Shown here: piece by piece, positions 7,784 to 60,084 of the stretch | Numbering within the stretch: position 1 is the first letter of the stretch | How the letters are laid out: each line of letters starts with the position of its first letter | Origin: Psammoneis japonica | Taxonomy: Eukaryota | Assembly: GCA_008632985.1 (NCBI GenBank) | Contig: QPGO01000023.1 | Location: 124,001-188,000 of the forward strand | DNA: 64,000 nucleotides | Direction of reading: 5' to 3' | The notes under the pieces: model-generated | Databases searched by the model: none | Seen by the model: only the letters and a program-made list of their open reading frames with translations | What the model was told of the DNA's origin: nothing | Program-made: the position numbers and the translations under genes

Positions 7784-7939
7784 GGTGGCAATAATGTATG
7801 GATGGGTACTTCTTACTTCATTCGCGGCAACGCTGATGTGACGATGCCGTGTGGAGTGTGACGGCGGGGCACGAGCGACACGTACCGTACTACCGGGTAC
7901 CAGGTGCCGGGTGCTGTACCGCAGAAACTCATTCTCCTG

Positions 7940-10900
7940 TTTGCAGAGGTGTTTTCTGGCTCATTTCACATCTTTTATCTTTTTGACAAAGCTCAAAGAG
8001 GAGGTTGACCTGGCCTTCTTGCACAGCACTGGCTCTCCTAGGTTGCTCAATGTTGCACAGTGCAAAAAAGACACGCTGCCAACTTGGCTGATCTTTTGCA
8101 GCACATGCAGAAGATGCTTGCAAGAAGGGGTGTCATCTTGAGCTTCTCTGCTGGGGTCCAGACAGCCAGCACTGACCAAAGCTGCACTTGTTTGTTTGCA
8201 GCATCTTGTGCCCCTTTGTGACAAGTGCTGCATCTGAGGCCCAGAGACTCCAATGTGATGACACATCAGGACTGGCCAAATGTGGATGTTTTTCTCTTCT
8301 CCGTGCGCTGTTTTTCTTGGCACATCTTTGGGCACAGTGTGTGGCTCCAGCCATGGTTTGGCATTCGAAAAACTGTTCCCTGGGGATCTCTTGGACAGCA
8401 AAAATGCACTCACAGCTCTTTGTGGGGTGAGAACCCACTCTCCATCACGGCAGTGTGAGTGTGCTGGCAAGATGGCACTTGTGAGAATGTTGCTTGTGTC
8501 ATCTGTTGTGAGCTTCTTGGCTTGATTCAGTTTGGTCAGGTTTTGTGTTGCTTGGCTCATGTGTCAATGAGAAGCTGGAAGTTTTGGTCCTTTGTCCATG
8601 CAAAGAACACCTGGAAAATCATTTTGACTGACAAGACTGCTTGGCATGCAGTGGAAACACAGCACTCTTGTCCTGCCAGGCCATGAAAAAATGGGGCCAT
8701 CAGATCAATTGTTTGGCTCAGAAGATTGGCTCCTGCTCATTTTTTTGTGCAGTCTCTTGTTGTCACTGCACAACAATGATTTCTCTGACTGCATTTCTAT
8801 GAAGGGGTTGATGAAAAAAAACAGCTCTGTGAATTTACACAGGCAAATCACTGAGGTGAGCCAAGGGTGGTTCACACATGAGCTTGCTTGTTGGAGATCG
8901 GCAGAGGTGCTTTTTGATGTGTTCTGTGTGTGTGCCACCATGCACTCTGTTGCAGCCAAAAAAATGCTCAGTTTAAAAGCACTTTTATGTTCATTGTTCA
9001 AAGCAAGTGATTCCACAGTCAACCATGTTAATCTGTTGGCACACACACTCATCCGTTGAGCCCAAGCTTCCTTCTCCCAAACCACACCCAGCTCCAAACA
9101 CCCATGTCATTCACCCCTTCACTGCTCCCTCCCCTGAAAAAAGATGCAGGGGGAGGGAGAGCTGTGGCTCTGTGGATCAGCCTGATGATCCAAACTAAAG
9201 CCAAAAGAGGCAACAACAGTGTCGGTCAGGCAGATTGAAAAACTGACCTTCCTCAGCTGTGCCCCCAAGTGCCTGCCAAAAAAAAGTTCCTCGCAGCACT
9301 GTGCCCCCTCCTTGCAGAAGAATGGACAAGAGTGTGTGGCTTAAAAGAGCAAGGGCCTGTGCACCTGTTGCAGCCAAACTTCCTTGAAGTGCTTGATGAG
9401 AAAATGACCACATCCAAAGACTGCCAAAAAAGAAATGACTGATGACAATGCCCACACACGTGCCAGCTTTCCAGATGCAAGACAGACAAAAAACTGTGGA
9501 TTTTGCTGGAGGCATCATTGTTCCTCAAAGTCATGACACAATGGTCAAATCAGGGGCCAAGGGTGAGCTCACACAAGTGCAGCTCACTTGAGGGGGGGCT
9601 CTGAGATGTGCACACACACATGTGTGCCAGCCTGGCTTGTTGTTGGCTGTGAGGCATGGCAGGGTGTGGTTGGTGGTCCACACACAGAGTGTTGTCATGT
9701 TGCCAAAGCCTTGTTCAGTCAACAGCATGCTCTCCTGGTCATTCAAAATGTCCATGACATGTTTTTGGCACAGCTGCTCAGCACTCATGAGCCACTGACC
9801 ACTCCGCATCTTGAGGCTCCAAAGCTGCTGCACTCTGCCTTGGTTCTGAGAAAGCAGCATGGTTTTTGGCCACCCATTGACTCTCAAAAATGCCCCACGA
9901 CTTTGGCTTGCAGCACCCCATTGCTTGCAACACAAGGAGATCTGCTCATCCAGAAACACCACCTGTTCACAGAGGTTCTCTGGCTTGTTTTGTACATTTT
10001 TTTGACAAAGCTCAAAATGAAAGTTGATCTGGCATGCTTTCACAGCACTGGCTCTCCTGGGTCACTCAGTGTGCAACACACCAAAGCAAGACACATTCCT
10101 GACTCAACTGATTTTTTGCAGTTCATGCAGAAGAGACCTGCAAGGGGGCAGTTTGGGGCTTCTGGGGTTCACACAGTTGATGATGACATCCCAAGTTGCA
10201 CTTGGACATTTGCAGCATCTTGTCCCTTTGACATGAGTGCTGCATTTGAGGCCCTGGGGTTTCAATGTGATCACACAGCAGGATTGGCCAAATGTGCAGA
10301 TTTTTTGCTTCTCTGCTGCTCTTTTTCTTGGCACATCTTTTGTGCACAATGTGCACCACGGTTTCAGCCATGGTTTGGCACCATTTGAAGCTGCACCATG
10401 CTGCAGGGTCCAGGGGTCTCTTGGGCATCAAATGCAATTGTGGCTCTGGATGGGTTGAGAACCCACCACCCTCCAGCCCCCTTCCCAGCAGCACAAGTGC
10501 TGGCAAGATGACGTGCATGAGAATGTTGTGTCATCTGTTTTGTCAGCTTCTTTGTTCAATTTGACCTGGTCCAGTTTTGTGTCACTTGGCTCTCATTTGT
10601 CAATGAGAAGCCAGAAGTTGGAGCCCATTGTCCATCCAAAGAAAACCTGGAGCAGATTTGTTTTGACTGACAAGACTGGCCAGACATTGAGTCTCTCCCC
10701 TGCTTGGTGGTGCAGCGGCATTGCCACACTCTTGTCCCACCTGTGACCACATGCCACTCACTCATGATCAATGCTCTTGTCAAACTTTAAGCTCCAGTCA
10801 TCTGCATCGTCATTCACCCCCCCTTCATTGCTGGCACCTCCCAAAAGAGTCAGGAGGCAGTGAAAAAAAGAGACCTGCAACTTTGTGGATCACCCTGTTG

Positions 10901-11180
10901 GTCAAAACACAAGCTGAAAGAAGAAACAGCAGCATTGGTCAGGCAGATTGAAAAGCTGCCCTTCCTCACCTGAGCCTTCAAACACCTGCCAGTTTGGCAA
11001 ACCCCAAGTGGCAAAGCTCAGCAGCTCAGCTCTTTGCAACACCCTCCTCGCACAAACAACAACAAGGGCATGTGGCACACAAAAGAGCAGGGGTTGCACC
11101 TGCAACCAAACTTCTCATTGCAGTGCTTGATGAGAAAATGACCACAACTGGAGATTGCTGCCAAAAAGAAATGAGTCAGA
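7940..11180 (+). repeat. Diverged direct duplication: copy A ~7940-8690 plus ~9100-9450; copy B ~9965-10750 plus ~10800-11180
   Basis: Shared anchors: ttttgacaaagctcaaa (7981/10000), cacagcactggctctcct, gtgctggcaagatg, ttttgactgacaagactg, ggtcaggcagattgaaaa, gtgcttgatgagaaaatgaccaca. Confidence 0.85.
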
Positions 11181-11419
11181 AAGAGATTGCCTTGGGAAAA
11201 AGATGACTCAAAGATGAAGCTGGCTCAGAAGAAAAAAAGCAACATTTGGAAAATTGATTTAGCAGGGTGACTTGAAAGATGAAGACAACCTGGAAAAAAC
11301 AAAGTTTTGGATGAGAAGGCAAGTTCTTGGAAAAGTGTGCACAACAAAAGATGACAATGTTTTCACCAACATGATTTTCTTTTGAAGAAAGGACAGGACA
11401 ACCAAACAACAAGAAACTG

Positions 11420-11965
11420 TTTCATGCAAGCCAAAACCTTTGCTTTTTTGTGGCTGTGAGTGGGTGAGGAGCCCAGCAACAAGTTTCTGTGCATGCAGTG
11501 TTGGACAACAACATTCTCTCACCCTGTTTGCAGTGGTGTTGCTGGGGTGGGCCCAGGAATGGACCAACTGTGGTCTGTGTTGGAAAACAAGGAAGAGTGG
11601 CACACAGCAGGTTGCTCCATGGGTGTTGGATTTGGTGGATTTTGTTGGCATGGCAGAACTGCCACCTCCCCACATTATGGAGTTCTTCTCAACTGCCATT
11701 TTGTGGTGCAGCACCAGCACAAAGTTGCACCTGCTGTGTGCCTTTTTGATCACAAAGCTTTGCTTGGAGGCATGATGCTCTTCTCTTTCTTGTTGGGTCA
11801 TGTCTGTCCAAGGTGTTGTGTGGGTTTCTGGAGGAAAAAAATCCCCACAGTTGAAAAACATGTCAGGATGTTGAGTGCCATGGAGTGGTTGTTGGTGAAG
11901 AACAGCACACCAACCGTCATTGCTGAAACCACAAAAAGAAGCTTGGATTTAACCTCACTCTGACC
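11420..11965 (-). pseudogene. Decayed gene remnant with N-terminal hydrophobic anchor, product unknown
   Basis: SEVKSKLLFVVSAMTVGVLFFTNN, then frameshifted FFPPETHTTPWTDMTQQEREEHH; no Tyr. Confidence 0.3.
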
Positions 11966-12591
11966 GCTGAATGAGAGAAAAGTGTGTGGCAACAACTGGT
12001 TGACTCTTCTTAAAAAGAAAGAAGAGGTGCAAGATGTTGTCAACACTGTCTTTGCAGCCCGTGCGATGTTCGGCGCTCGTTTTTCATTGGGAGTCAAACA
12101 TCAGAATCACAGCCCATCGCGCGTGCGGGCTCTGCACCACATGTGTGGATATGTCGTTCATTCAGACGGTCCTGACTGAGAGTGGATCAAGCTTCACTGT
12201 AAGACGAGCGGCAATGTAGAATATCTCAAACTGCAACCACTATATCCTCGTCCGGTAACACCACATGGAATAAAACGACTGTGGTTTTCATGCTAGGTTA
12301 GTAGAGGGGCTTGCACCTGACCCTGACAACGGCGAGTCTTGCATTTTCGTTTGATTGTGGGCGTTGGGTAAAGGTAGTTCTATAACTCGAATGATCATTC
12401 AATGGCAAGCTGCGGAATGCTTTGTGGTCGCCGCAAGGAGAGCTCGACCGAACAGGAGCCCCTGACGACTTGCACTCTAGTATGAAGAGCAGCGAGATTA
12501 TGGTCACCGCGTAGGATCGTCTTTCCCTTCGTTCGCATCTGCTATGCTACGCCTATATGTTCCTATGTAGAAGCTGGCCACTGCGACTGGC

Positions 12592-13869
12592 TCAGGACAT
12601 TAGGCGACCTGCTATGACTTCAGAACATCCTCGAGTATCCCCGCCGCCCTTCTTGACCCAAGTTCCATCATTCTGCTTCCAAAATGACTTTGTGTTGCGC
12701 TCAACTCCTTTGTGACGCCCCATTACTTTCCCGCTTTTGGGGTCCTTAATCTTGTGGCCGTAACCTGTAGACTGGTATACAGGAATACGCCATTGTTGGC
12801 CTTTCACGGATTCTGCAGGCCCGGCGACAAAAACAACATGGCCAGTGTTGGATTGGTTTGAATTAAGGGCCTCCTCGATTCTATCCTCTTCCAACAGCAA
12901 AACGTCTTTCAATTCCTTGCTGAGCTTTCTATCTTTCATTTTGGCTCTCAGCTTCTGAAGGTTGTCGATTTTGAGGTTTTTGAGCTTCTCAAGTTTCTCC
13001 GAAATCTCCTTGTCGAAACTTTCGGCTTTTCGGCGATAGTTTGTTTCGTTGTGGACTACGCGTTCGTCCCCATCGTCCTCGCTATCGTCGGCATCGTCTT
13101 CATCATACAGTTCTGAAGTTTTGACTCTTATGAGCAATTCCTTAAGTCCCTCTTCCGACGTTTCATCCTTGACCTTTACGTATTCTGCTCCACCAGCGGC
13201 GCATCCTTTGACCCTGTACACTAGAACATCGCCTGGAACAACCATCCTTATGTCACATATCTGTCGCCAGTCGTAACCAGCCCCCGGCTCTGTCTTATTC
13301 ATTTTGCTAAAATAGTCAAAATAGTCCTTGGCTCTCATGTAGTCTCGGTCACTTATCTGCAAAGTGATTTTCTTACTTTTGATTTCCTCATTCAAGGCCG
13401 TGGATTGAACGAATCGAACGAATCCAGAGCAGTCTACAAACATTTCCCCGTCAACGTCGAACTTTTGTTTTCCCACGAAGCCTTTTTTTGGACCATGTCT
13501 ATAAACTGTAACTGTATCCATCTTTGTACCCTTCTCTTCTTCTCTAATAACTCGGTGAACGGCTCTCTTGGCAACCCTGAGGCATTCTGCTTGATCTGGT
13601 CCAGGCAAAAACTTTAGCAGACCGTCAAAGGTGTCTTTAGACAACCGATGTCCATCAGGTAGGTTCTCATTCACGTTGTCTTTTCCTATACGGCAAGCCA
13701 CGGAAAGTTTCGCAATGGAATCAATATGAGCATATTTCTCTAAATCTCTGCACCGGTTCTTCGCCCATTTCTTGGCGTCGTCTTCCTCTTTCTTCTGCTC
13801 GTAGATCGCGAACGCTTTCAGAGCTTCCTCAAGCTGATGAGCATCACTTTCTCGTGTTTTCCAATTCAT
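12592..13869 (-). CDS. NlpC/P60-superfamily (papain-like amidase) protein with a large acidic insertion
   Basis: 425-aa intact ORF with the ordered motifs VDCSGFV, VPGDVLVY and NTGHVVFV. Confidence 0.65.
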   Translation of the reverse strand: MNWKTRESDAHQLEEALKAFAIYEQKKEEDDAKKWAKNRCRDLEKYAHIDSIAKLSVACRIGKDNVNENLPDGHRLSKDTFDGLLKFLPGPDQAECLRVAKRAVHRVIREEEKGTKMDTVTVYRHGPKKGFVGKQKFDVDGEMFVDCSGFVRFVQSTALNEEIKSKKITLQISDRDYMRAKDYFDYFSKMNKTEPGAGYDWRQICDIRMVVPGDVLVYRVKGCAAGGAEYVKVKDETSEEGLKELLIRVKTSELYDEDDADDSEDDGDERVVHNETNYRRKAESFDKEISEKLEKLKNLKIDNLQKLRAKMKDRKLSKELKDVLLLEEDRIEEALNSNQSNTGHVVFVAGPAESVKGQQWRIPVYQSTGYGHKIKDPKSGKVMGRHKGVERNTKSFWKQNDGTWVKKGGGDTRGCSEVIAGRLMS

Positions 13870-14259
13870 TCTGACTGCAGGGGGGTGTCACTGCTAATCA
13901 AAGTCGTCCTGAACGACAGCCACTGTTCGATCGATGAAGCCTGTATGGTTGCATGCTGTTGAAGTGAACGATTCGATGTGATGAGAGATGAGATGAATCA
14001 AATGATGGATGGTGCGAACGCTGAATCCAGAAATCCAAAATGCAGTCGTGGTCGCGCGGGCGATTCGTGTTACCCGTCAGCGCGAAGTTGAAGTGCGCTC
14101 TCGAGCTTTTTGTCTTTCCAAAAAGCTCAAAATAGCTCGAGCCGCAGGATTTTCTTCTGTCATTGGACTTACGGCATGCATCATGGCATCATCACGATGT
14201 TGTCACAGCAGGGCTACTTCTTGTTCCATCATACTGTAATACGGTAAGGCCGCCAAACC

Positions 14260-15120
14260 ATGAAGACAGATCAAAGTGGCAACGATAAGATTCATGTTGA
14301 TGCCCACAAGGGTGAAGCGTTGTCCAGAAACAACTCGAGAAGGTCTCCAAGAAGCGCGTCAGAAACAGAAACGTTGCTTCTGACGGCTGACGACAAGAAC
14401 GAGTGTGATTCACAACTTGTTGAAACAAACAACAAGAACTCTGTTGCAAGAACAAGCGATTCATCTTCGAGCAATTGGAGCGGATTCTTTGTGCAACATT
14501 TGAATCGAAAGACCATGTTTCTTGCCGGCGTCGCGGTTGTTGTGGGCGTTGGTTTAACAGCAGCAGGTGCCGCCTGTGTGCTTGCATTGATTGCTCTCTT
14601 GACATCTCCCACATGGCTTCCTGTTGGGCTCATGACATGTCCCTTCTGGTCACCACTGGCATTGCTCACGTCTCCTCTGTGGGTGTCGGGGTTGGTCTTG
14701 TTGGCAATCGGATTTGCATGGTGCGTGGCTGGAGCGGCCTTTGTTGCGGCAGTTTTTATCTTTTTCGCGTGGCCGACCGAGTGGTTGCCCAAGGATTCGA
14801 GCAAAGCGGAGTGGTTCTTGATGAAACGGAGTTGCGTGACTCTCTTTCTCATCAAGCTTCAAGCCAAACTTGTTTTGCACTCAGCTGGTGTTGGACCCTT
14901 GGCGGATGCCACCTTTGCGATTGCCGATCGCATTGACCTTGTTGAGTTGCAGAAGGCCATGGCTGACTTTGATTTACAACAGTGGGCTGATCAAGTGAGA
15001 CAAATGGACATTGCGCAAATGCAAGCAGTGCTTGTTGCTGCCATTCGATCCGTGGTTGGTCTGCAATCTGATGAAAGTTTCGAATGTGAGGGGCACTGGG
15101 ATTGTTTCGTGAAAGTCTAA
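14260..15120 (+). CDS. Oleosin-like long hydrophobic hairpin protein; Tyr-free, TA-mutated copy (possibly a pseudogene)
   Basis: ~90-aa hydrophobic stretch with proline-knot-like TSPTWLP/TCPFWSP/LLTSPLW; no Tyr in 286 aa; CG retained while TA is nearly absent. Confidence 0.55.
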   Translation: MKTDQSGNDKIHVDAHKGEALSRNNSRRSPRSASETETLLLTADDKNECDSQLVETNNKNSVARTSDSSSSNWSGFFVQHLNRKTMFLAGVAVVVGVGLTAAGAACVLALIALLTSPTWLPVGLMTCPFWSPLALLTSPLWVSGLVLLAIGFAWCVAGAAFVAAVFIFFAWPTEWLPKDSSKAEWFLMKRSCVTLFLIKLQAKLVLHSAGVGPLADATFAIADRIDLVELQKAMADFDLQQWADQVRQMDIAQMQAVLVAAIRSVVGLQSDESFECEGHWDCFVKV

Positions 15121-15799
15121 TTTAGCACACCACCATGGGCAACAGAAAAAGCAAGGCTGTGTTTCATCACAATGTGCCGTCTTAACAACAACATGCGTGC
15201 TGTGTGCATTGAGCTCAACGAAGAAGCGAGCAGGCAGTCGTGTGGCAGAGAGGGCAAAGGACACTCTTGAAACCACCAGGTGGGTCTGCCCGTCAAGTTG
15301 CAGCAAACGTTCTCGGTTGCCAGAGAGAAGTCAGCCAGAGGACCAATCAAGCAACTGTCACTTGGTGTCAAAAAGTCAAGATGAGGAAGCTCTGCAACAC
15401 CTCAAAAAAGAACTCGACCGGAAAGCTTGTTTCCTGTGGGATTTGACAGAGAGAGGCAATTTGCCGATTTCAGCTGGGACCGTCTCAATGGATTCACCAG
15501 AATGCAACTGGAGATTGCGCAAGCCATCATGTTTGCCAACTGTGCCAGGCAGCCTGCAAGTGAGTTCAGCTGAAAATGATTTGGGCCAACAGGAATGACT
15601 GACTCCAGTGAAGTGGTGAGAGAACCTTCCAGATCATTCTTCTGACCAAAGAAAGGGAAGAGCATCAGATTGGCAGTGAGACAAAACTCTTCAAGATTCT
15701 CCAAGGAGAAAGTTTCAAAAGTGCTGCTTCTTTTTAATTCACGCTGCAAGCAGCAAAAGGTCCTGAGACAAACAATCCCCCCAAGCAGCATCTGCAGCT

Positions 15800-16385
15800 G
15801 TTGAAGCAACTTGGTCTTTCATGGACCACAACTCTTCACCCTTGGTGCCCAAAGCACTGCAGAGCTCCAGTCAGCAGCCACAATGCCCCACAAGCAGCAT
15901 GACTGGCCCTCTTTGTTTGAGCATCAACAGTTGTTGAAGCAGCATCAAACCCATCCTCAGCAAGAATGAAAGACCTTCAATGGAGTTGATTCCTTTGCTT
16001 TTCTCTGTCTTGTCTTCATGCAGCAAAATCTCCAACTCACATTGACTGGAGTCAACTCCAGAAAGAACCTCAATTTTTTGTTGTCGTGTGACTTCCAAGC
16101 TTTTGCTCAGTCCTTCATGGATGATTCTCCATCCTTGGTTCCCAGCACATGACCACCAGAGAGCTCCTGCTGGCAATCACTGAACAGCTCCCAAGAAGCA
16201 GCTTGGGTGCCACAGCTTGTTCTGGCACTGACGACAATTGAAGTTGCTCAGTCTTTCATGGACAACTCTCTGCCCTTGGTCTCCAATGTGCCACAGAGCT
16301 CTGGTCAGGCCAATGGTCACAAAGCAGTCTCCAGGCAGCTTGGTCAGCCTGGTTTGCTTGAGCATCAACAGGTTGAGACAGTGTC
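15800..16385. repeat. Three diverged internal repeats in a decayed gene
   Basis: Recurrent gtc(t/c)ttcatgga..cc(c/a)ttggt..agagctc unit at ~15812, ~16108 and ~16250; tgagcatcaacag recurs at ~15918 and ~16359. Confidence 0.55.
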
Positions 16386-16964
16386 AAGCCCGCTGCTCAC
16401 ATCATGGGTTGCAGCAGACACCCGCATTTCATCAGCGGCAAACAACCTTCCACAGAGTTGAGTGCTTTGCATCTCTGTCTTGTTTTCATTTGGCAAAGTG
16501 TCCAACCTGTGCTCTGGAGATGAAAAAAAGAGAAGCAGCAGGCACAACTTGGCCAAGGCTGCAGCAGCATTGCCAACCACCACAGGCACAAAACACAGCC
16601 ACTTTTCTCACATTGGCAGCAGTGCATCCCCTTGTGTGACATGTGCCAGCAGTCAGTGCTGTTGATGGCAGGACCTTGTGACTTGCTTCTGATGGCCACA
16701 GCAGGGTGCGGCAACACTTCTGCTCCCAAGATTGCTGTCTCAACCTTGCCAGCTGCTTTTTGGGAGAAAACACTGGCCCCAGCAGATGCCTGCTGCACCA
16801 ACCCTTGCCAAAAGAGGGGCCAAAAGCTTTGTGAAGCCCATGTTGCCAGGGCCAAAGCAGAGCTTTTCTTGACAGCAAGAGCTGTTGGAAATGCGTGGCT
16901 TTCTCCCGCTGGACAGCGGCACATCAGGAAAAGGGGAAGACAACCCTGAGAAACCCAAACACAG

Positions 16965-17620
16965 ATGTGAGGTCATGTTTTGTTGGTGTGTTGCTCAATG
17001 ACAAGCCTCCCTCCACAATGTGTCACAAATTGGTGCATTGGCGGAGCCAAAGATGGAACTCACAACCCAAGTTGAGCTGCAGTTTGGTGCAGAGAACAGC
17101 GCAAAACTGACAGCCTGTTGGGCTGTCTGCTCCCCTCCATTGGATTGCATGGCAAGCCTTCAACAAGAGAGATGGAAGAGTTGCCATCACATTCTGTCTT
17201 GGCGCATGGTGTAGATTGATTGGGAGAGTCAATTGGGGGAAAAGGGAGCCAACACATCCAAGAGGCAATTGGAGCAGATTTTCAAATCTTGGTGGCAGAA
17301 AACAATGTCTTTTGACTTCCCCCAGCACATTTGCCTTTGTCTTTGGTGCCTTTGCCAGTGTCAAGAGAACTGGCAAGGGTTTGGACAGTGAGTGTGACAT
17401 TGGAAAGCTTGCTCAATCTTTGTTGAAAAGTTCACACCAGAAGCACAAAAGGGTTGCTCAAGTGAAGCCACCAAGAATTTTGACATTTTCTTGCATGCGA
17501 TGGGTCTCAACCCAAAGGACACACCAAGACAGCAGCAGTCATGTCACCACAAAAGATTGTGTGTGTGTTGAAAAAACCCTTCAATCCATGGAAGATGGCA
17601 GCCTCAAGGTTCGAGTTCAT
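16965..17620 (+). pseudogene. ABC1/UbiB atypical kinase fragment, copy 1 (internally deleted, frameshifted)
   Basis: FPSTFAFVFGAFASVKRTGKGLDSECDIGKLAQ...TLQSMEDGSLKVRV matches the ABC1K C-terminal consensus (FRFP.TF.F..RAF....GIGKGLD). Confidence 0.75.
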
Positions 17621-17702
17621 GAGTTGACCTGTTTTTGTGGGTGTTGGTGTGGTTTTTGCACCAGGGAAAGGGGCAAGACAATTCCGAAAAACTGGGGCAA
17701 AA

Positions 17703-18395
17703 TCTGAGGTCACATTTTGTTGTTGTTAGTGTGTGTCACTCAATGGCAAGCCCCCACAATGTGTCACAAAAATGGGCATCAGCAGAGCCAAAGATGTGGA
17801 GCTCACAACCCAAGCTGAGCTGCAGCTTGGCATGGAGAACAGCACAAAACTGACAGCTTGTTGAGCTGCCTGTTCCTCCATTGGATTGCATGGCAAGCCT
17901 TCAACAAGAGATGGAAGAGTTGCCATCACATTCCACAATGACACGTGGTTTGGATCAAGCAGTGGTGGAAAACAGGCAAGATGCTTTGTGCGTGCTTTCA
18001 GGGACAATCAATTGGAAAAAAAGGGAGCAAGCATCAATGAGACATTTGGGATGGATTTGCAAACCTTGATGGAAAACAATGTTTTTCGATTTCCCATCAC
18101 ATTTGCCTTTGTCTTTTGTGCTTTGGCCAGTGTCGAGGGAATTGGCAAGGGCTTGGGCAGTGAGTGTGACCTTGAAAAGCTTGCTCAACCCTTTGTTGAA
18201 AAGTTCACAGAAGCACAAAAGAGGTGCTCAAGTGAAGCCGCCAAGAATTTTGATGTGTTCTTGTGAGCGACGGGTCACAATCCAAAGGATGTCGAGACGG
18301 CAGTCATGCCGCTACGAATCCATAGATGACGGCAGCCTCAAGGTTCGAGTTCGATCCTTGGAAAACGAAAAAGCCCCGGAGCGAATGGCTCTTTT
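17703..18395 (+). pseudogene. ABC1/UbiB atypical kinase fragment, copy 2 (tandem duplicate)
   Basis: ENNVFRFPITFAFVFCALASVEGIGKGLGSECDLEKLAQPFVEKFTE...GSLKVRVRSLENEKAPERMAL; clear nucleotide alignment with copy 1. Confidence 0.8.
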
Positions 18396-19779
18396 TTTGC
18401 GCAGGGAGGATCGGAAAAGATTTTGGTTGCATCGCTCATGCTCAACTTTGCGGGAATTGAGAGTCGACCCATTTTTTCGGGTGTGGGTGTGGTTGAAGCT
18501 GCAATCGGTGTTCTTCAGGCTGTCACGGCAAACGCAAAGGTCAAGAAGTTCGATAAAACATATGCCAAGTTTGTCCAAACCAAGTTTGAAGGCGAAGCCT
18601 AGAGTTGAAGGTCGAAGTTGTTTTTATATTTGTTGGGTTTGTTGGTTCATTCATCCCTCTATATGTAGAGAACATAGTGCTTTAGTTTTGTCGAATATAA
18701 ACAGTTTGCTTTTTCTCGAAGTTTGGAGAAGAGGCAAGATGAATCAGAAACCCCATCTCTAGCTTATTTCTTAGAGAGTAGATACTCGTAGAGACTGCTA
18801 TTAGGTACTCGCTTGAGAAGGTAGATTGTACCCCGGAACTTGACGATCAAACACGTCGCACCACGAAATGCTCTTTGCACCGACCATTTCGCTGGAATTG
18901 ATCTTTCTTCGGTGTGGGAACAATCCACCGAAGACACAGCACCTTACGATTGCAAAAGGGGTGCGACGCCACAGCAAGATCAACCATCGCGTCTGCAGCT
19001 TTGTCGGGGTGGAGAGCGACAATGGAGCTGGGTGTTTCACCGCAATGAGCAAAACAGCGCCTTGATCTATTTGATGAAAAGTTGTGCCATCTCCATCAGG
19101 CGTGTCCCCAATCCACACCCGCAGTGTTCCATGCGGGGCGACTGCATTGTCTGAGTTGTTGGAATTCGAGGCAGCCCAAGACCACGTTCGCAAGCAAATG
19201 TGCAACACCCCGCTGCAAGAACAAATCCAAGTACGTCATCAATGTGTCAGGGAAGCTATCACCACCAAGATATTATAATCGTGGAGACCACAGCCCAAAG
19301 ATAACCGTCACGATGGCATAATGAAGTCGCTCATACAACATAATCGTGGAGACAACAGCCCATCAGAATACTGGAAAGAACACCCAATCAATCGCCCATG
19401 ATCATCATCGGCGGGCTCATGTAGTTCTTTCACCGGGAAGCGGCAAGACGTTGGTTAGCTTTATAATCTTGCGAGGTTTGCGATAGAAGGAGTGGGGCTA
19501 AGTAGATCAAGAATCCTGTCGGCCGTTTACTTCCGGAGCAAGAGACCCTTTTGACGATACAAGCCAGCACAATGGAGTAGTTGGCGCGTTATTAAGAGGA
19601 ACGGGGAGGAGAAGGACGCATTCAAGCATGGGAATTCCTCATTACGGATGGCCGTGCTTGTATCGGCTCGGTTCATAGCAGCTCGTGCATCTTCTTTCCG
19701 CTGATGGACGAGTTATTCGATGGTCGGCACCAATCTTGAATCGCGGGTAGAAGTGAATTGGGAATGTTCGAGTGCCGTA

Positions 19780-21255: not shown

Positions 21256-21344
21256 TTATGCTCGGGCGGGCGGAAGCAGGAAATCTTCTTGGAGCGTGGA
21301 GCTCGTTCAATGACGTCATGGGGTTCGCCCAAGCTAGCTACAGT

Positions 21345-23560: not shown

Positions 23561-23604
23561 TAGTGGAACAATTCGCACTAATGAATAGCTCCATAATTGG
23601 CAAG

Positions 23605-46760: not shown

Positions 46761-47072
46761 AGCATCGTGGAGTGCGGCTTGGGGAACACCTACTAGTATT
46801 GCAGGCAACAGGTTTATACCTCATCCAATGATATCCTTGGACCGCGCAGCACCGGTTTGGGGGCATCTCTTCATTCAACTCCATACGTAGCCATCTCATT
46901 AGCATCGTGGAGTGCGGCTTGGAGAGCACCTACTAGAGTATTGCAGGCAACATGATTATTATACCTCATCCAATGATATCCTTGGACCGCGCAGCACCGG
47001 CTTGGGGGCAGCTTCTTAATCCTGGTCAGCAGGATTATCTCTTCATTACGCTCCATATGTAGCCATCTCATT
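46761..47072 (+). repeat. ~140-bp tandem duplication between convergent gene 3' ends; second copy has a short insertion
   Basis: agcatcgtggagtgcggcttgg... at 46761 and 46901. Confidence 0.85.
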
Positions 47073-47088
47073 TTGTAAATCACACTCG

Positions 47089-48441
47089 TCATACGTAAGC
47101 TTCCCAACCAAAGCGAGTGAGAGGATGTGTAACTCGATACAGATTTCCGTGAATAGAAACGTATCCAGTAGACCTCTTGCGATAGTCTTCAATGAGCTCG
47201 GACAAAGGCGGCAGTGGTGTAGATACAATGTCTCTTTCCGCTTGTACGATATTCAAAATAGAACCAAGCAAGCTCGTGACATGACGCCCAATACCCAAGC
47301 TTGCCGTCAAGCCTGTTGATCGAATTCCCGTGGCCGCAATCCAACGCTTGTCGGCGTTGAGGTGAATTTGATAGTCGCGACGGGTGGTGCCAGGCCGAAT
47401 TCCAACATAGTCTCCCACGTAATCATTCTCGGCATCAAGTTCTGGTACGATACGTTGAATGTGTGATGTGAGTTGTTCTGCCACAGCTGGATCAATTGTG
47501 CGGTCCGTCTTGGATGCTTGATCCAAGGCGGTCGGACCGACGACCAATTGATTGTACAAGGTGGAAAACACAAAGATCCCCTTGGTTTGTTGCGTGGGGA
47601 CGGGCTGAATGGGACATGTAATTTGTGTCTTTGTGTTGGATGAAAAGATTCGGTATTGTCCACGTCTTGGCTTGGCAGACCACGACGGTGTTGGTGCGTC
47701 TTGTGTGTGTTGTTGTAGAACATCGGAATACACGCCTGTTGCATTGACAACCACTTTTGCCTTGATGGATAAAGGAGCTGCAGATTGATCATCGTCACGC
47801 GTACGACGTATTGTCCATATCTTTGTCTCGGCATCAAAGAAAGACTGTTGTGGATCAAAGGTAAACCTTGTGTATATTGTGGCTCCGTTTTCTCGCGCAT
47901 GAAGGGCAAATACAATTGAAAACAGCCAAGGATCCAATACAATCTCCCCAGGAATGTGTACAGCCCCACAACAAGAGTTAGAAAGACTGGATTCTCGCTC
48001 TTGCACTTGTTCCGAAGTTAAAAGAGTAGCATGAGCATCCCCGGCATTCCAAGATTCGTCCAAGACGTGCGATAGATGAGTTGTTCCTTGTTCTTTTTGT
48101 TGTTCCTCTTGAGCTTGATCCCACGGCCACTGACACACTAGAGACCCACAGGGTCGGTACGGAATGTTGAATTCTTGACAAAAGAGTCTAATTTGAGAAA
48201 TAGAATCCCGAATCAAGGCTCGTTCTAATGTTCCAGGAGATGCATCGACACCGGTACAAGCAATACCACTGTTGGAACCGCTGGCACACGAAAGCAAATC
48301 ATCTTGGGCTTCCACTAGTGCGCATGACCAACCCGCCAGAGTTGCCCATCTCAAAATGCTCAAACCAACCACACCTCCACCCACAATGACGATATCAAAA
48401 GACGGTGAGGAATCATCATCGTCGTCAGTTTGATTGCTCAT
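47089..48441 (-). CDS. FAD-dependent oxidoreductase (DAO family; GlpA/L-2-hydroxyglutarate oxidase-like)
   Basis: DIVIVGGGVVG, ASGSNSGI, VVNATGVYSD, PRRGQY, GIRSTGLTASLGIG. Confidence 0.85.
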   Translation of the reverse strand: MSNQTDDDDDSSPSFDIVIVGGGVVGLSILRWATLAGWSCALVEAQDDLLSCASGSNSGIACTGVDASPGTLERALIRDSISQIRLFCQEFNIPYRPCGSLVCQWPWDQAQEEQQKEQGTTHLSHVLDESWNAGDAHATLLTSEQVQERESSLSNSCCGAVHIPGEIVLDPWLFSIVFALHARENGATIYTRFTFDPQQSFFDAETKIWTIRRTRDDDQSAAPLSIKAKVVVNATGVYSDVLQQHTQDAPTPSWSAKPRRGQYRIFSSNTKTQITCPIQPVPTQQTKGIFVFSTLYNQLVVGPTALDQASKTDRTIDPAVAEQLTSHIQRIVPELDAENDYVGDYVGIRPGTTRRDYQIHLNADKRWIAATGIRSTGLTASLGIGRHVTSLLGSILNIVQAERDIVSTPLPPLSELIEDYRKRSTGYVSIHGNLYRVTHPLTRFGWEAYV

Positions 48442-48874
48442 TACAGTCGTTGTTGGATATGGACGAGAAATGTTAGCAAAGCCTCCACGCGGTGTGTGAT
48501 GAACAAAAAAGTGAGGGGAAGAAGGACGGTGAGCGCAAAACGTCATTCGCGTGATGTCATGAAATGACCCAAAGTTCTGTTTGCATAAACAATGATGACG
48601 TTTCAAGGTATTGTGGTTTTAACTAAATTAATCTCACTTCTACTCAGAGTATCATGGTATGTTTTCGACGTGACTCGTGCTGTACAGCGAGGAAGAGGGG
48701 GACAGTCCGCGGATGGAGACCGCGCTTCACGTAGAGCGTGGTATGAATCGCCGTAGCGGAGCGCCTCTGAAGCAACCTCTTGTGCTGTCTGTTGCGGTTG
48801 ACGCTCTTGTTGTTATCGACAAGGAGAGTTGAGAATAGCAAACTCTTTATTTTGTGACACATCGTCCTTTTGCT

Positions 48875-52483: not shown

Positions 52484-52575
52484 CCAACTAGTTTTATGTG
52501 TTGAGTTTGCATCTGCAACGCCCCGTAGGTTGCATCAGCTTCTCTCGCCGGAGAAGGACGCGGTATGCAACAATT

Positions 52576-53046: not shown

Positions 53047-53239
53047 GATTTATATCTCTAATGTGTGGCAGAAGTGCAGCAGCTACACCGCACGCAAGCG
53101 CTCTGTGGCAGACGCGACACGCGCGATTGTTCGCAGTGGCTGCACACACACCGTGTACTCTCTCTACTGCCGGCAGCTAGAGCTGGACACTCTCTACACT
53201 TTACTAGAGTAGAGTCTACAATGGAACACACTCGTGCTG

Positions 53240-54240
53240 AATCTGCGGAACAGCACACGAAACAGCATGTTTGTTTGTTGTTTGTGATGCAATCATGTGG
53301 AACTTGCACCTCTCCATTTGTCCATGCCTCAAAGCAAAACTTGAAAGATCCGAGAGCACATGCGATGATGATGCGCTTGCTCTCAATGGTGCGGCATTGA
53401 GCGACAAATCTGTTGTTCCACAAGAGGCTGGCAACATTGACCAAGTTGAGCGCAATGTGCAGCACAGTCAACACAGCACAGAAATGAAAGGGGCTCACTC
53501 TGACTCTTTAGAGCTTTTGGAGCAGCACAAGCAGGTTGTCTTTTTCCATGTGTTCCTTGTCAAGACAGGGTGGGAAAAGCCATCAGAAATCCTTGCTTTG
53601 GTTCTTGAGGACTTTGAAGCCTTTTTGTGGAATGTCCCAGCCATGGGATTCATCTGTGGCACTGCCAAAGATGTGAGAGAGTGCATGCAGGCCAAGCCAA
53701 CAAGCACTTCCAGAGGAGCACAAAGTGAGGCATCATGAAAACACTGCCAGAGTGCTGGTCGTCAAAAAAAAATCACCAGCTTGTGCTGCAGCTCACTCCC
53801 AATGCAAGTTTGGCACATGAAATGGAAGTGGTGCATGTTGTGCATCTGCAGCTGCTGGCATTTTCTTTGTGGTGGTGACTGGGGTGGCTGGCAGCCTGGA
53901 TGACACAATGCATGTGTTGCCATCTGTGCACATCAAGACAATGACGGTGGTGAGTGGACATGGCCAATTGAGCCAGCAGCGCTTGGCAGCATCCTTCAGC
54001 AAAGATGGCAGGGTGTTGGCTCTTGGAGCCAAATGCAGTGGCAGCAGTGTTGGGGGGGCATCTCCAGCCAGCAGCTGGCCAAAGAATCTTGTGTGAAACT
54101 GGTGTGGTGCTGAAAGAGTCTGTCAATCAGCGCATTTGGGGGATTTGGCCAGGATTTGGTGAATGCTGGACAGACTCAATGCAGGAGAATTTCCCTGCCA
54201 ATTTAGAGGAAGCAACACCTGCTCAAATCTGCAAGTGAAA
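53240..54240 (-). pseudogene. Decayed gene, membrane-protein-like C-terminus, unknown product
   Basis: Protein-like frames QILAKSPK...RFFGQLLAGDAPP...RCWLNWPCP and AVLTVLHIALNLVNVASLLW...IIIACALGSFKFCF. Confidence 0.3.
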
Positions 54241-54943
54241 CAACGCTTGTTTTTTATCTATGACGGGAGATGGAGTTGCAGTCAAAAATCTGTTCTGTCA
54301 TTGTCACCTGGACAGCAATTCTGCACCCAGATGCGCTTGATTGCACAAGTTAAGAGCAACTCTGGGAAGCAGCCCCCCTTTTTTTTTTGCCAAATGCCCT
54401 TTTTTTTTTGCAAGTTGTTGGCACAGTTCACAGTGGGACAAACAGAAGCAAATGGCTCAGTTTGGTGGCAGCACGCAGTGATGTGCCATGCAACAAAAGC
54501 CAACTTGTGCAGTCATGTTTTGTGCAACAGACAATGTGCCACAAAACACAGTTGAATCAGTGATGATGCCATGCAATGTGTGCCATGCAGCCAATGTGCC
54601 AATGCAACAAACATGCCAAGTTGTGTGGCTGCATCAGGCAGCACGCTGCAAAACACAACTGAGTCTGGTGATGCCATGTCACAAGTGCCAAATGGCATGG
54701 TTGCAACACACATGAAACTGAAGCTCACTGGGAAAATGACCCTTGTTGCACCTGTGCTGGCAGCAGATGCATGGATTGCTGCTTTTCAAGTGCTCATCAA
54801 TGCAGGTCAACCCTTGGCCCTGATCCTTTCAACACACCAGCAGTGCACCCACACTCCACACACCACCACCAAACTGTCTTGTCTGACTCACAGGAAGAGT
54901 GTCAAAATCAACACCTCAACCTTTTTTTTAATTTTCTCCTTTG

Positions 54944-55339
54944 GACGCGTTCCAGCCCTAGGTGGGAGCTCGTAGTACTGACGTGTGACAACAATAATTT
55001 TTATCATCCGTCGTATGTTTCGTACGTAGATTTCTACGTGTGATATTTAAAAAAAATTGTCCAGACTCGCTGTTTTGCGAAGCCCCAGACGTTTTATATG
55101 ACAAATTTATAGAAACAATAATGCGCCAGTTACATTCTTCAATGTCTGAAGAATGTAACTGGCTAAGTAAAAAATGATGTACTTCAATCATGTGCGAGTT
55201 TGTGCGTTCGCAAAATTGCCTCATTTTCTGTTGGCGATCATTGACATTTTAATTACCGTATAATTTTACTACGGAGTTCGCACGTAGAAGTCTACGGGCC
55301 CAATGTCACACGGATTCCCACCTACGTCTGGAACGCGTC
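54944..55339. mobile_element. Non-autonomous TIR element (MITE, ~396 bp)
   Basis: Imperfect ~24-bp TIR gacgcgttccagccctaggtggga / tcccacctacgtctggaacgcgtc, flanked by TTTG on both sides; internal inverted pair cgtagatttctacgtgtga / tcgcacgtagaagtctacg. Confidence 0.8.
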
Positions 55340-56439
55340 TTTGGCAAAAAAGACAGCTGTTCAGAGAGAGCATTGTGTGGTGCTGTCTGTCATCACCAAA
55401 GCAGGATGACGATGCTGTGGTCTTTCACTGCTTGAATTGATCATGCAACAAAACACAGCTTGGAATTGTGCAAGTGCTCAAACAGCACTGAGTTGAAGAG
55501 GTTGTTCTCATTTCCTGATGCACAATGCCCCTGCCTATGTGTTGGTGTTGTTCCAGTCCTTCTCAACTCATTTTGCACTCCATCTGTGTGCTTCATCACC
55601 CAAGATGACCATCAGTGTGCATGTCTTTGACAAGAAGGATCTTTTCCAGGAGAATGAAAATTGTGCTCAACCTTTCTTTCAACACTTGCTGGTTGTCAGA
55701 TTCCTGCTCCAGAGTTTTCTGCCCTCTGGATGATTTTTGCAACTCAAGTGTCAAGAAAAGAGCAGAGACAAACCTGGCTTCCAAGTTTGATTTCTCTGAT
55801 TTTGAACCAGCACAGAGGGTGGCATCATCAAAGGCAATTGAAACTTTGTCCAGGCAATGTGTCGCATGTTCAATGGCCCATGCATGGCAGTCATCTCAAA
55901 ACAAGCAACAGACAAATGGCAAACAGTTGTTGGCCTGAGGATGGGCACACGCGGGGGCAAGATCTAGATGCTTGCAGGCCATGCAATTCCCACACTTGAC
56001 AGCATCAATTTTGCCTGCCTTGGAGCACCCCCAAATGCTTGTTTGCTTGTTGAACCCTTGCCAGGGCTGCTGTGCTGCTGCAAGAGCTTCTGCATGACCC
56101 CCCTTGAAACTTCAGGTGTCACATGTCCACCTGTGCCCTGTTGCTGGGTTGAAATTGCTGCCAATTTTTGCCAAAATTGTGTGACTTGTGGCAGACAAGT
56201 GCCAACAATTGGTGTTTGACTGGCTGCAGGCATGTCTGTTGTCTGTGCATTCCATCATGTCATGCAAGTGAACAATGTTTGGGCTGTCCTGCTGGAGTTC
56301 TGCTTTGGTGAGCTCCTGCATTTGATGCTGTTGTTGGAAGTTTTTTTTTCAAAGAACAAAGGGCCACAAACATGACCAAAATGTCAATGGTCTTTGTGAG
56401 GTTTGCATTGATGTGCACAATTTCCACCTTTTTGTGTTG

Positions 56440-57465
56440 TTCTCACATCACATGTCTTTGACTCTTGTTTTGACAGGACAGATTTGAGCTTGCTGGTTTT
56501 TTTCTGAGGACACCAAGGCACTGCCAGCTCACATCAGTGCATGTCATGCACAAGGCTGGATTGCTTGTCTTGGTCTCAGTGGCTTCTGATGTTGTGCTAA
56601 AAATGAGAAGCAAAAATGCCCCACAACAACCCTGTGGTTTCACAGCACAGACCAGGCACCACCAGTCAAGATGGGCTGCCATCTGTCAAACCACAGACAC
56701 CCATGCCATTGATGAAAAAATCTGAAGATGCAAAAGAACAATGGCCCCTGCTGATCTTCTTGACTGCAAGCATCATGCCAACTGCAGAATGTGTGGGTGT
56801 GTCATGCAGAGTTTTGAGTGTCACTTTTCCATTTGTTGTGCTGGCCAGAAAGATCTGCAACACATGGATGTGAGAAGCTGTGAGACAAGGTTTGCCATGA
56901 TGTTGTGTTGACCACCATGCACAATTTCTCTAAGTTGGGAGAGAGGTGCACAGCTTGCAGACAAGTGTGAGCATGTGTGCTTTGGGAGGCAGCGGAGGCA
57001 ACCAGATCAAGAGCCAATCTCTTGACAACATCTTCCATCTCTTTGGTCCCAAGAAATCTGGCAGAACTTGAACCCAGTGGGAGAGTCGTCAAACATCAAT
57101 TCAAGCAAAATGTTGAGTCCTTGAAAACAGACAGGTGTTCTGGCGAGATTGCACCATTTGATGTGGTTGTGGAAGAGGAGTGATTGCTCATCAGTTAAAC
57201 GCCAATCGCAGGTCCTGTCCATGTGGTTGTCCCATTCCCTGTTTGTGGCCACCGGCACGAAGCTTTGAATGCAACATTTTGATGGCTGCAAGACCTCCAT
57301 GAGATTGTCGATCAGGTGAATGTTGCTATGATGTGAAGAAAAGTCCCCATCCCAATGACATTCTTTTAGCTTGAAACCTCGTCTTGTGTCATCCTCTTGT
57401 CGTCTGAGAGCTGCAAGCAAAATTTCATCTAAATTGCACCCATTGACACTTAAAAATCCCGCCAA
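56440..57465 (-). pseudogene. Decayed protein gene, possibly diatom LRR-like family
   Basis: MAGFLSVNG.NLDEILLAALRRQ..., LQIFLAST....TLKTL, C-terminal ..GVLRKKP; several frameshifts. Confidence 0.3.
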
Positions 57466-57689
57466 CGAAGCTTCCTAAAGTCGTGTTTTGAAAAGCAAGG
57501 TTCGCTGCCGACAGTTCGTGATGCTCTTTTCTTGCATTCCATGGCGCTTCTGCTTGGCACACAGGTCATCATTGGAAGAACATGATTCGAAAGGAATCTG
57601 AGCTGGATTGCTGGTTCTTCTTCCTTTTCGTCGACAAAGTCCTGAAGCTCAAGTTCGTTCACAACATCCACCCCACAAGTGTTCCCTGC

Positions 57690-58760
57690 AAACTGCTCTC
57701 CATGTGCCCCTGCCTCTTTGCTGTCATCCTTCTTGTCCGACTTGTTGTTGTGCCTGCATGAGCGTGGATGTCGAGATGTTCCTTCTCGTGAGTGACTCGA
57801 ATCTGGAGTGAAATCATCACCGTCGCCTTGGCCATCTTTGGACGGGTTTCTCTTGTCATCAAAAGGTTGTTTCCGCAAAACATGCACCATGCAGAACAAC
57901 CAAGAAAGTCCATCCGAAACAAAGTGACATCAACAGAGTCGGAAATGTCAAACATGTGCTCCAAATGGATCTTTTCTTTGCTGCCGGTGCGGATGACACA
58001 TTGGGACAATCTTCCACGTTGTGAGCCAAACCAGTGGAAATGCCATCTCTTGTTGAGATTGGTCATCACAGTCAGTGCACTTTTGTCAGGATTCAGGGAT
58101 GAAGCAGCAAGATGCTGGAGGATGACCTGGTGTTCATGGGCTCCAGCATTGGTGTCTTTCTGATGCTCCACACCTGCCCACATGTTCTGGCAAATTGCGG
58201 CATTGTTGACTTCTTTGCCCTCTGCAAGAACTGTGTCAACATTGCCCGATGCCTTGTGCTTCCCACCGCCCAGTTTTGGCACACACAGCAGGTCTTTACA
58301 TTCATTGCATTCGGCAAAAGCGCATTCCTGTGGTCATTGCATTTTGTCTTCAAGACAATTCATGTGCCCGTCGCGATTCTCCTGGCTGTCTTCTTTGCTT
58401 TTGAACCAAGTAAAAAAGCCCACATCAGGCAGGTTGGCAGGCCACTTGCTCCATTCGGCACCGGTCAGTTTGGGGCCCAAGTCATCACTCACTTCGTGAT
58501 GGCATCAGACTTTGCCTCTGAAAATGCCAAAGTCTCTGCCTCACGCTGCTGCTTTCAGACGCATTCCACAACCTCCAGTGCACCAGCATTGAGCTGTTGC
58601 TGCTGAAGTTGTTGTGCACCAATGCAACAGCGTGTCTCCCCGATGGTCAAAATTCCACCATCACAGAAGATGAGAGTGCCGAATCTCTTGACAAAAGGCT
58701 CTTTCTTGTTGGCTTTGATGGTGCTGCATGGAATGAACAGGGTGGATGCGAGCACATGTT
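57690..58760 (-). pseudogene. Crinkler (CRN)-like protein pseudogene
   Basis: GNVDTVLAE...WAGVEHQK...QVILQHLAAS.LNP....LTVMTNLNKRWHFHWF resembles the restriction-endonuclease-like CRN C-terminal domain found in stramenopiles (recalled, not searched). Confidence 0.55.
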
Positions 58761-58979
58761 GGAGTGAATTGCTGTTGTTTCTTCATCATCCCACTTCACC
58801 AATGCAAGGCCATTGGCAGCCAGCACCTCCACTGCAGGCAATTCCGCCTCCTCCTCCAACTGAGCTGCTGAAGTGGCGTCCATTTTCTTGTTTGTTGTCG
58901 TTCATGGCAGTTGTTTGTGTTTTTGCTCGCATCTCGCATGCTCTGCATCCATGTCATCTTCTTCTGTGTCACAATGAAG

Positions 58980-60010
58980 AAATGCATCAACACAATCCTG
59001 AATTCCCCATCACATCAAAATCATCAGCATTGTTGAAAGATGCCGGTGTTCAATCAACACACCATGTCTGGGGTGTGACCTCATTTCTCCAAGAGCGCCG
59101 TGACCGCACCTGCGTCCAATTTGTTGCTTCCGACTGTTGCGCACAACCCCAACATGTTTTGAACTTGGCGGCACAAGAGTGCATTGCCCACAATGCAAAC
59201 ATTGACCAGACATGCATTGGACAGCTTGTGAGCAAACATTCCTGCATCACATGGCTGACTTGACATTTGCACATCTTGGATGGCAACAATCGGCGACAGT
59301 CGTTGGCATTTGGAACTTCCAAAAGTGGTGAAATCATTCATCCTGATCAAATGGGATGATGCTGTTTCATTGATAAAATGTTCAATGGATCATTTGCATT
59401 GATTCTCCATGATCTGTCCCATCAAATGGCACAGCGTCATCTCTCTCTCCAGTTGTCAAATTGAGGATTGGCAAACACAGGTGCATTGGGCAGCACTGAA
59501 GCGTGCACTCCAATCAATCGTTTCTGGCCAATTGAGTCTTGCCCATAAAACTTGTTCTTCATGAAATGTGGGGCCTTGGCAACGGATGGAATGCGAACAG
59601 TGTCATTTTGTTGTCCCAAATGCCACGGATCATTCCCTCGAGAATCTCTTCTTCCAACATGTTGTGACAAATGACGGTTCAAGCCATGTGGCGGAGATTG
59701 CATGATTCCTGCTCTCATGTTGTGGCTTTCAAGGATGAATGTCGACATGACATGTGTTGCTCAAGGCATGAGCTCCCCAATCCGTTCTCGACGACACTTG
59801 GATGTTTTCACAATTGTCAGGCCCAACCAGCTGGCAGACCGCTTTTAGAATCTGTCGCTCAAAACAGAAAACAGTCCCTCCAATCGGTGCCATCCTCTAA
59901 AATGCAGTCTTCTTGGTTTTGCTGACATGAGAATCCCAGAAACGGAGCACCATTGTGCTGAACCGGAAAGGCATGTCGACAAAATCCATCCAATCGGGTC
60001 ACTGCCATGC
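58980..60010 (-). pseudogene. Decayed gene of unknown product
   Basis: MAVTRLDGFCRHAFPV... followed by frameshifted protein-like segments with TGA interruptions. Confidence 0.3.
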
Positions 60011-60084
60011 GTGCACACCAGAAAACGCGAAAAAATGAGGCTGCAAACAAATTCGCGTTTTGAGAACAAAAAGCAAAAATCTTG

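Follow-up and report, generated by a model that had tools for sequence, protein, structure and literature searches.

Repeat-induced point mutation (RIP) in fungi changes C:G pairs to T:A, mostly at CpA, creating TpA and making the DNA AT-rich. To our knowledge cytosine is the base attacked by every known targeted mutator (RIP, AID/APOBEC and methyl-CpG decay), removal of TpA from genomic DNA is not a known activity of any cellular process, and no described mutation or genome-defence process explains the pattern reported here. The pattern lies in a window of 64,000 nucleotides (the whole stretch analysed, to which all positions refer) of gene-dense nuclear DNA of the diatom Psammoneis japonica (GenBank assembly GCA_008632985.1, contig QPGO01000023.1, forward-strand positions 124,001 to 188,000), in which four sharply bounded domains have lost nearly all of their TpA (TA) steps. 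The domains are probably the outcome of an in-situ, segment-bounded, TpA-specific A:T to G:C hypermutation of native segments, with methyl-CpG-type decay added in the repeat cores. Full-text searches of the openly available literature listed no description of TpA-erasing domains.

The domains total 16,609 bp and contain 55 TA where 691 would be expected from the background rate of 0.0416 per bp, and in 500-bp windows the count falls from 11–42 outside to 0–6 inside the four regions. Those regions had been picked out by the first-pass annotation and lie where it placed them, the fourth being divided by a normal island of 393 bp. In the first domain, D1 (7961–12190), the observed-to-expected ratio (o/e) is 0.06 for TA and 0.12 for CG. 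With the two ratios in the same order, the others are D2a (14287–15735, plus strand, feature start given as 14246; 0.06 and 0.62), D2b (15736–18313; 0.01 and 0.17), D3 (21340–23210; 0.05 and 0.73), D4a (53218–54929; 0.04 and 0.18), D4b (55323–57196; 0.04 and 0.10) and D4c (57197–60091, with a gene remnant on the minus strand; 0.06 and 0.55), and in the background, that is the rest of the window, they are 0.60 and 0.98. Two states are thereby apparent, namely loss of TA alone (D2a, D3 and D4c) and loss of TA together with CG (D1, D2b, D4a and D4b), so that the original description of the domains as TA-poor holds for TA but is incomplete for the latter four, which are also nearly devoid of CG. 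Like methyl-CpG decay, the change turns a palindromic dinucleotide into TG/CA on both strands and in particular segments only, and such decay accounts for the CG loss in D1, D2b, D4a and D4b (CG o/e 0.10–0.18). As the whole cause methyl-CpG decay was rejected, since it cannot remove TA, and TA is lost 10–60 fold, and also where CG is normal, as in the gene of D2a; loss of TA is independent of loss of CG.

The longest TA-free run is 1,477 bp (15735–17212), with a probability of about 2e-27 and 4e-24 such runs expected in the window, and each of the runs of 1,477, 963, 821, 797, 795 and 759 bp is expected fewer than 1e-10 times in the window. The two TA-free stretches first spotted by eye prove to be exact, at 759 bp (8039–8798) and 1,477 bp. 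Outside the domains the longest such run is 231 bp and adjoins D2, and the next is 164 bp. The former (18323–18554), directly right of D2b, has normal CG, and so here too the TA-less state extends past the CG-less core. Edges are sharp to about 10–60 bp on most sides; at the left edge of D4, for example, TA occurs every 5–13 bp up to 53217 and then not again until 53509. In the domains TG and CA reach 1.5–2.0 times expectation and are strand-symmetric (1,830 TG and 1,773 CA in the domain sum), and GC content is the same as in the background. That the six-frame peptides are poor in Tyr and rich in Cys and His, with TGA almost the sole stop codon, is a trivial consequence of this dinucleotide content.

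Conversion of TA and CG to TG and CA by transitions must leave the total of pyrimidine-purine (YpR) steps constant, and constant it is, at 0.2390 for the pooled domains (0.229–0.258 for single ones) against 0.2419 ± 0.0076 for 73 background windows of 2 kb. A forward simulation, in which only TA to TG/CA and CG to TG/CA changes were applied to the window's own background sequence, gives domain compositions correlated with those observed at r 0.99–0.999 overall. For the TA-only domains the 16 dinucleotides are reproduced with a root-mean-square deviation (RMSD) of 0.0015 (r = 0.999), against 0.0073 when any substitution is allowed and 0.0148 with no change, and the trinucleotides with r 0.997. 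The GC dinucleotide in these domains stands at 69.7 per 1000 observed and 68.0 simulated, compared to 57.1 in the background, and the drop in AT is also reproduced. For the TA+CG domains the corresponding RMSD values are 0.0058, 0.0117 and 0.0225, and in D1 the excess of TG+CA, computed by hand, is about 319 and near the TA+CG deficit of about 364. The indices used to detect RIP are reversed, with TpA/ApT at 0.062 and (CpA+TpG)/(ApC+GpT) at 1.90 in the domains and 0.625 and 1.23 in the background. Every loss at TpA is by transition and, since TpA is palindromic, A to G on one strand is inseparable from T to C on the other, leaving the strand of the change indistinguishable there. The constant YpR total, the transitions-only fit and the reversed indices, together with a Tyr to His change in a gene of normal CG content described below, support the initial proposal of a process apart from 5-methylcytosine decay that turns TpA into TpG or CpA within bounded segments.

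Selection, by which TA (and CG) would be purged because it is recognised by a nuclease, a transposase or an RNA-decay factor, would accept any substitution, but a model of that kind fits 2–5 times worse, and the number of YpR steps overall has not changed. In favour of such a purge, UpA and CpG are reported to be depleted together in numerous cytoplasmic RNAs and RNA viruses (PMC3829696), and the background of the window is itself already TA-poor. The purge here, however, takes in non-coding tandem repeats and a broken pseudogene, has removed an invariant Tyr and has proceeded to ratios of 0.01–0.06, far past known selective depletion, and selection seems a very improbable cause.

The sequencing runs found come all from one study and one sample, possibly the source of the assembly, with the library type not on record, and this gives some footing to a technical artefact of sequencing, base calling or assembly. 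Read contigs of one run (X1) nevertheless carry the domain sequence, as deeply covered as the flanks (summed depth 50–136 over D1 and D2, 55–68 in the left flank), differ from the window over D1 and D2 at 4 of 937, 8 of 1,420, 2 of 1,093 and 1 of 1,077 bases, and span boundaries, single contigs crossing both edges of D1 (7000–8028 with no difference and 11575–12667 with two). Of 302 read differences 40 were listed, and the counts given below rest on those. The X1 contigs rule out an artefact of assembly or polishing, although not every library artefact, and the base-calling error that the first-pass annotation had raised against itself is unlikely now that the same sequence is seen at flank depth. 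A modified base misread on both strands would be expected to leave TG and CA reads in conflict at every palindromic site rather than clean contigs, the flanks and an element within D4 are normal, and the gene in D2a keeps its frame and conserved residues, all of which makes a technical origin extremely unlikely. A second run (X2) has no depth in bins wholly inside D1, D2 and D3 and a third (X3) placed no contigs, and both are uninformative on expression or absence.

Survival of TA follows a context rule. Retention, defined as surviving TA per bp in the domains relative to background by tetranucleotide, is zero for ATAC/GTAT (0 against 319 background occurrences), 0.02 for ATAT, 0.03 for GTAC, 0.04 for CTAC, 0.05 for both GTAA and ATAG, 0.08 for ATAA and 0.09 for CTAG, and rises to 0.34 for CTAA/TTAG and 0.49 for TTAA. 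An additive per-strand T-A-N model fits all ten classes with k(TAC) 2.32, k(TAT) 2.17, k(TAG) 0.96 and k(TAA) 0.33, and is preferred to a single rate by a likelihood-ratio chi2 of 70 with 3 degrees of freedom. The bias of T-A-Y over T-A-R holds also against the abundance of TG/CA precursors (chi2 40, p 6.5e-6), and so goes beyond a bias among new mutations. In the domains with loss of TA alone there is no rise in CG, from which it follows that there has been one change per site.

TadA has U-A-C-G in a tRNA loop as its natural site. The change in the domains, if read as A to G with T (U) directly 5', would be like that made by TadA, or by Tad2-Tad3 in the mRNA editing of filamentous fungi. The requirement of tRNA-type adenosine deaminase editing for a 5' T/U is stated in two papers (PMC11156358, PMC11087585), the latter also giving Tad2-Tad3 as the fungal editing enzyme. 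These enzymes edit RNA hairpin loops without changing the genome, whereas the change here is heritable, lies in DNA on both strands and is near-saturating, and T-A-Y is favoured over T-A-R whereas fungal Tad2-Tad3 editing is often at UAG or UAA. Clustered transitions in repeated DNA are shared with retroelement copies hypermutated by APOBEC or ADAR. Those copies are strand-asymmetric (G to A or A to G on one strand) and linked to reverse transcription, in contrast to the equality of TG and CA here and the inclusion of a host gene that has kept its start. Among the 182 (133 + 49) open reading frames (ORFs) of the domains that were scanned, none has a reverse transcriptase or integrase match above the Pfam cut-off.

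The direction of change can be read in a conserved diatom gene, P0121, intact within D2a on the plus strand, with its ATG at 14260 and a TAA stop at 15118–15120. An exhaustive HMMER search with an E limit of 1e-3 yields 27 homologues, of which the best has an E of 3e-60 and is 55% identical, and the coding score of 0.080 per codon is as in real genes. Over 290 codons P0121 has 4 TA against about 30 expected and 43 CG against about 49, the expectation being taken from the window's 14 clear genes, and its coding-region TA o/e is 0.09, compared to 0.42–0.64 in all five homologous loci, which come from metagenomes. A single Tyr is invariant in the family; all 15 aligned homologues have it and all five loci encode it by TAC or TAT, whereas in P0121 it is a His (His211, codon CAC at 14878–14880, plus strand), and the His codon is the derived state. 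Because all 23 other invariant columns are kept, the sole conserved residue lost by P0121 is the one that requires TA. The branch is not long, identities to the three nearest homologues (55, 51 and 49%) being close to those among the three (56, 59 and 47%).

The TAA stop of P0121 is itself variable, a T to C change at 15118 giving CAA in a read contig at the whole local depth (51.7 of 51.7). The ORF runs 18 codons beyond the end of the two closest homologues, and the first of these codons, CAA (15064–15066), was considered as a former TAA stop and demoted, homologous loci ending in TGA in four of five cases and TAA in one. Some 200 bp at the 5' end of the gene (14268–14460) hold seven of the listed differences, a single short contig of depth 111 accounting for six, and this cluster suggests a second, slightly diverged allele or paralogue. 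The P0121 protein has transmembrane hairpins, repeated SP(L/I)W(L/I)P hairpin motifs and an invariant QAK...YAAGVGPxAD block, and belongs to a family of conserved membrane proteins without a Pfam model, the relatives of which are all unnamed proteins or metagenome contigs; the family looks diatom-type. A search of the Atlas with P0121 gave no usable match.

D4c carries on its minus strand (59084–59389) what is left of a disrupted tRNA pseudouridine synthase gene of diatom type. The match of this remnant to PF01416 (E 1.3e-5; 26.1 bits, with the cut-off at 23.3) is the sole Pfam pass among the 133 domain ORFs of at least 70 amino acids, and none of the 49 ORFs of 40–69 amino acids in D4b and D4c lies above the cut-off. 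In the Atlas 30 of 30 matches to the remnant are clusters of this family, and the best of them, with a score of 0.94, is mostly Bacillariophyta. A word-based protein search for homologues of the remnant returned no match, and phmmer against the PDB found nothing at E ≤ 10 for 59084–59389 or for 59440–59760.

Foreign DNA, arriving TA- and CG-poor from a virus or by horizontal transfer, would fit the sharp, insertion-like edges and the 132 of 133 longer domain ORFs that have no Pfam match above cut-off. Against such an origin the family of the D2a gene occurs in diatom-type contigs, P0121 is no more diverged than family members are among themselves, its homologues have ordinary TA content, and it is diatom clusters that come nearest to the pseudouridine synthase remnant. 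Viral contigs hold no relative of the P0121 gene, none of 119 pattern matches in them being confirmed, and the tandem duplicates described next show independent TG-versus-CA outcomes after duplication, so that an origin outside the diatom is highly improbable.

D1 contains a diverged tandem duplication of about 2 kb (7936–8644 with 9962–10683, and 9139–9438 with 10852–11174), and D2b has tandem duplications of about 0.7 kb (16920–17553 with 17657–18318) and smaller (15786–15955 with 16223–16394). The D1 duplicates are 71.6% identical in bases and 84.5% in a purine/pyrimidine code, those of D2b are about 91% identical in the latter, and the copies of D1 and D2b together range over 72–83% in bases and 84–91% in purine/pyrimidine. 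Transitions outnumber transversions by 100 to 56 in D1 and 73 to 24 in D2b, against 224 to 258 in the control for duplicate comparisons, a pair of inverted paralogues (26363–27686 and 28216–29532). TG stands opposite CA in 18 of 115 aligned steps in D1 and 10 of 104 in D2b, and in 5 of 99 in the control. This discordance is what would be seen if the two copies had each resolved a shared ancestral TA or CG in their own way, and so at least a part of the conversion came after duplication. A read contig lacks 791 bp (17254 to 18046), one D2b tandem unit, and has 12 other letters instead, and the gap is a copy-number variant between haplotypes or copies. The left part of D3 belongs to a high-copy repeat, with a summed depth of 1,739–2,220 over 21175–22308 against 50–75 for single-copy sequence, or about 25–35 fold, and other copies carry TA or CG at the TG/CA of the window in 3 of the 4 differences listed. 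The proposal that duplicated or accessory DNA is the target is thus supported in part, by the tandem duplications of D1 and D2b and the high-copy repeat of D3, no duplication having been shown for D2a or D4. A self-comparison of the window in the purine/pyrimidine alphabet linked no domain to any normal region.

Timing is addressed by two inserted elements. Within D4 there is a miniature inverted-repeat element of 396 bp (54944–55339), with 24-nt terminal inverted repeats (54944–54967 and 55316–55339, 92% complementary), an inner perfect hairpin of 17 nt (55125–55163) and TTTG on both flanks. The normal island that it forms (54930–55322, 393 bp) has a TA o/e of 0.83 and a CG o/e of 1.47, and the element is a later insertion left untouched by the process. 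A second, unrelated element, TA-rich, lies directly left of D3 (20904–21258), with repeats at 20916–20939 and 21204–21227 (24 nt, 92%) and at 20904–20916 and 21246–21258 and a doubled palindromic end (20916–20984). It is not in other copies of the surrounding repeat, a read contig joining 20906 to 21263 with the loss of 356 bp. Over 7961–15735, 4 of 23 TA (the border TA at 14286 included) are among the read differences listed, and so the remaining TA are far more often polymorphic than average sites.

For a mechanism, the targets would be native diatom nuclear segments, repeat cores together with an adjoining gene, mutated in place. A single A:T pair of every TA step would become G:C, giving TG or CA at random, and since the product is no longer a target, CG would not be created. 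The preference for T-A-Y (R-T-A on the other strand) over T-A-R is about 2–7 fold, some 92% of TA is gone overall and 97–100% in the best contexts, and the loss halts within tens of bases at the edges. CG would be taken too in the repeat cores, by ordinary C to T decay of the methyl-CpG type as a second process that can be told apart from the first, and with both lost all pyrimidine-purine steps there are TG or CA and the GC content stays level. From the palindromic target, the tetranucleotide rule and the near-saturation we infer an enzyme acting on DNA rather than chemistry or selection. Deamination of adenine to hypoxanthine at TpA is chemically the simplest agent, and is at best a possible one; the first-pass annotation had put forward, beside an adenine deaminase, a modified base or heterochromatin-linked repair as candidates. 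The process may be aimed at repeated or silenced DNA and spread into neighbours, and its role may be to disable such DNA, Tyr codons, TAA and TAG stops and TA-rich signals being destroyed without a gain in AT-richness.

The base 5-hydroxymethyluracil of dinoflagellates and base J of trypanosome telomeres are located at TpA. The pattern could be a by-product of a TpA-directed epigenetic base mark in silenced segments rather than the work of a dedicated mutator. The mark would be N6-methyladenine, or an oxidised thymine (5-hydroxymethyl- or 5-formyluracil) from a dioxygenase of the TET/JBP type, and its raised rate of mispairing would let TA decay slowly to TG/CA, much as methylated CG does. Symmetrical change of a palindromic target on both strands, as with CpG methylation, is what such a mark would give, as is the company that TA loss keeps with CG loss in repeat cores. 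A TA rate excess of about 30–60 fold (D1 has 16 TA against 937 TG+CA) would also clear TA at a few per cent of ordinary divergence, which fits the well-kept gene. On the other side the edges of 10–60 bp are sharper than those of usual chromatin domains, the miniature element within D4 is untouched, TA loss includes an apparently unmethylated gene with normal CG, and the literature matches listed for 5-hydroxymethyluracil with diatom concern dinoflagellates. A modified base is the next most probable explanation after hypermutation, although an unlikely one.

The hypermutation reading invites comparison with fungal RIP, which it resembles in being transition-only, in acting on both strands of sharply bounded segments, in including diverged duplications and a high-copy repeat, and in spreading into an adjoining gene. 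The chemistry and polarity are opposite, TpA being destroyed and TG/CA created here with GC unchanged, and no strand-coordinated tracts were seen. Many diatoms have DNMT4 genes, related to RID and of unknown function (PMC9998398). In its most developed form the idea is of a RIP-like diatom genome defence of opposite chemistry, a natural DNA adenine 'base editor' working at TpA (best T-A-Y) on either strand of repeated or silenced segments until TA is gone, so that transposons and duplicated genes would lose their Tyr codons, their TAA and TAG stops and their TA-rich signals at unchanged GC. This full version is speculative and, as it stands, rather doubtful.

Several points weigh against in-situ hypermutation as set out above. 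Whether a site became TG or CA is not coordinated along the strand, runs-test z values of -0.1 to -2.6 lying within the background range, and no duplication involving D4 appeared in self-comparisons of the window, nor was one shown for D2a. The TA+CG domains are incompletely reproduced by the simulation, which gives 64.4 AT and 61.1 GC per 1000 where 49.8 and 72.5 are observed. The two inserted elements mean either that the process is episodic or that the insertions are very young. The 33 differences listed for D1 and D2 comprise 8 between TA and TG/CA and 10 between CG and TG/CA, where about 6 each of 27 transitions are estimated from composition; the spectrum is not clearly above that estimate and so is no demonstration of current activity. 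Run X1, if from the same sample as the assembly, is not an independent confirmation. The polarity of the change rests on one invariant Tyr, the D3 differences and arguments from composition, and an ancestral TAA to CAA change at 15064 is an unproven possibility.

If true, a segment-targeted A:T to G:C mutator would add a class of its own to the forces that defend or shape genomes, and could offer a natural DNA adenine-editing activity for which the T-A-Y context is defined. Such a mutator would carry a warning that detection of repeats and pseudogenes, dinucleotide RIP indices and substitution models can fail in diatoms, which are major marine primary producers. A gene adjoining a repeat can be damaged, P0121 having lost its invariant Tyr and having an unstable stop codon.

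The genes of the flanks are ordinary, with Kelch, MgtC, PDZ, bestrophin-like, TauD, NFACT and AAA proteins; a Pfam search of 42 flank ORFs returned only ordinary genes (MgtC, TauD, NFACT and AAA), and Rfam and tRNA scans of the window gave no match. A mitochondrial-type flavin adenine dinucleotide (FAD) oxidoreductase (47089–48618) has its named best relatives, at 54–60% identity, in Seminavis, Nitzschia, Fragilaria, Pseudo-nitzschia and other diatoms, with other matches at no more than 63% and none closer among 5.8 billion proteins. The inverted paralogous genes that served as the control pair belong to no known family, are 65% identical and have normal composition. Short tandem repeats occur at 23605–23928, 46761–47013 and 60101–60250, with units of about 160, 140 and 67 bp respectively that are 90–95% identical, and the last of them begins 10 bp past the right edge of D4.

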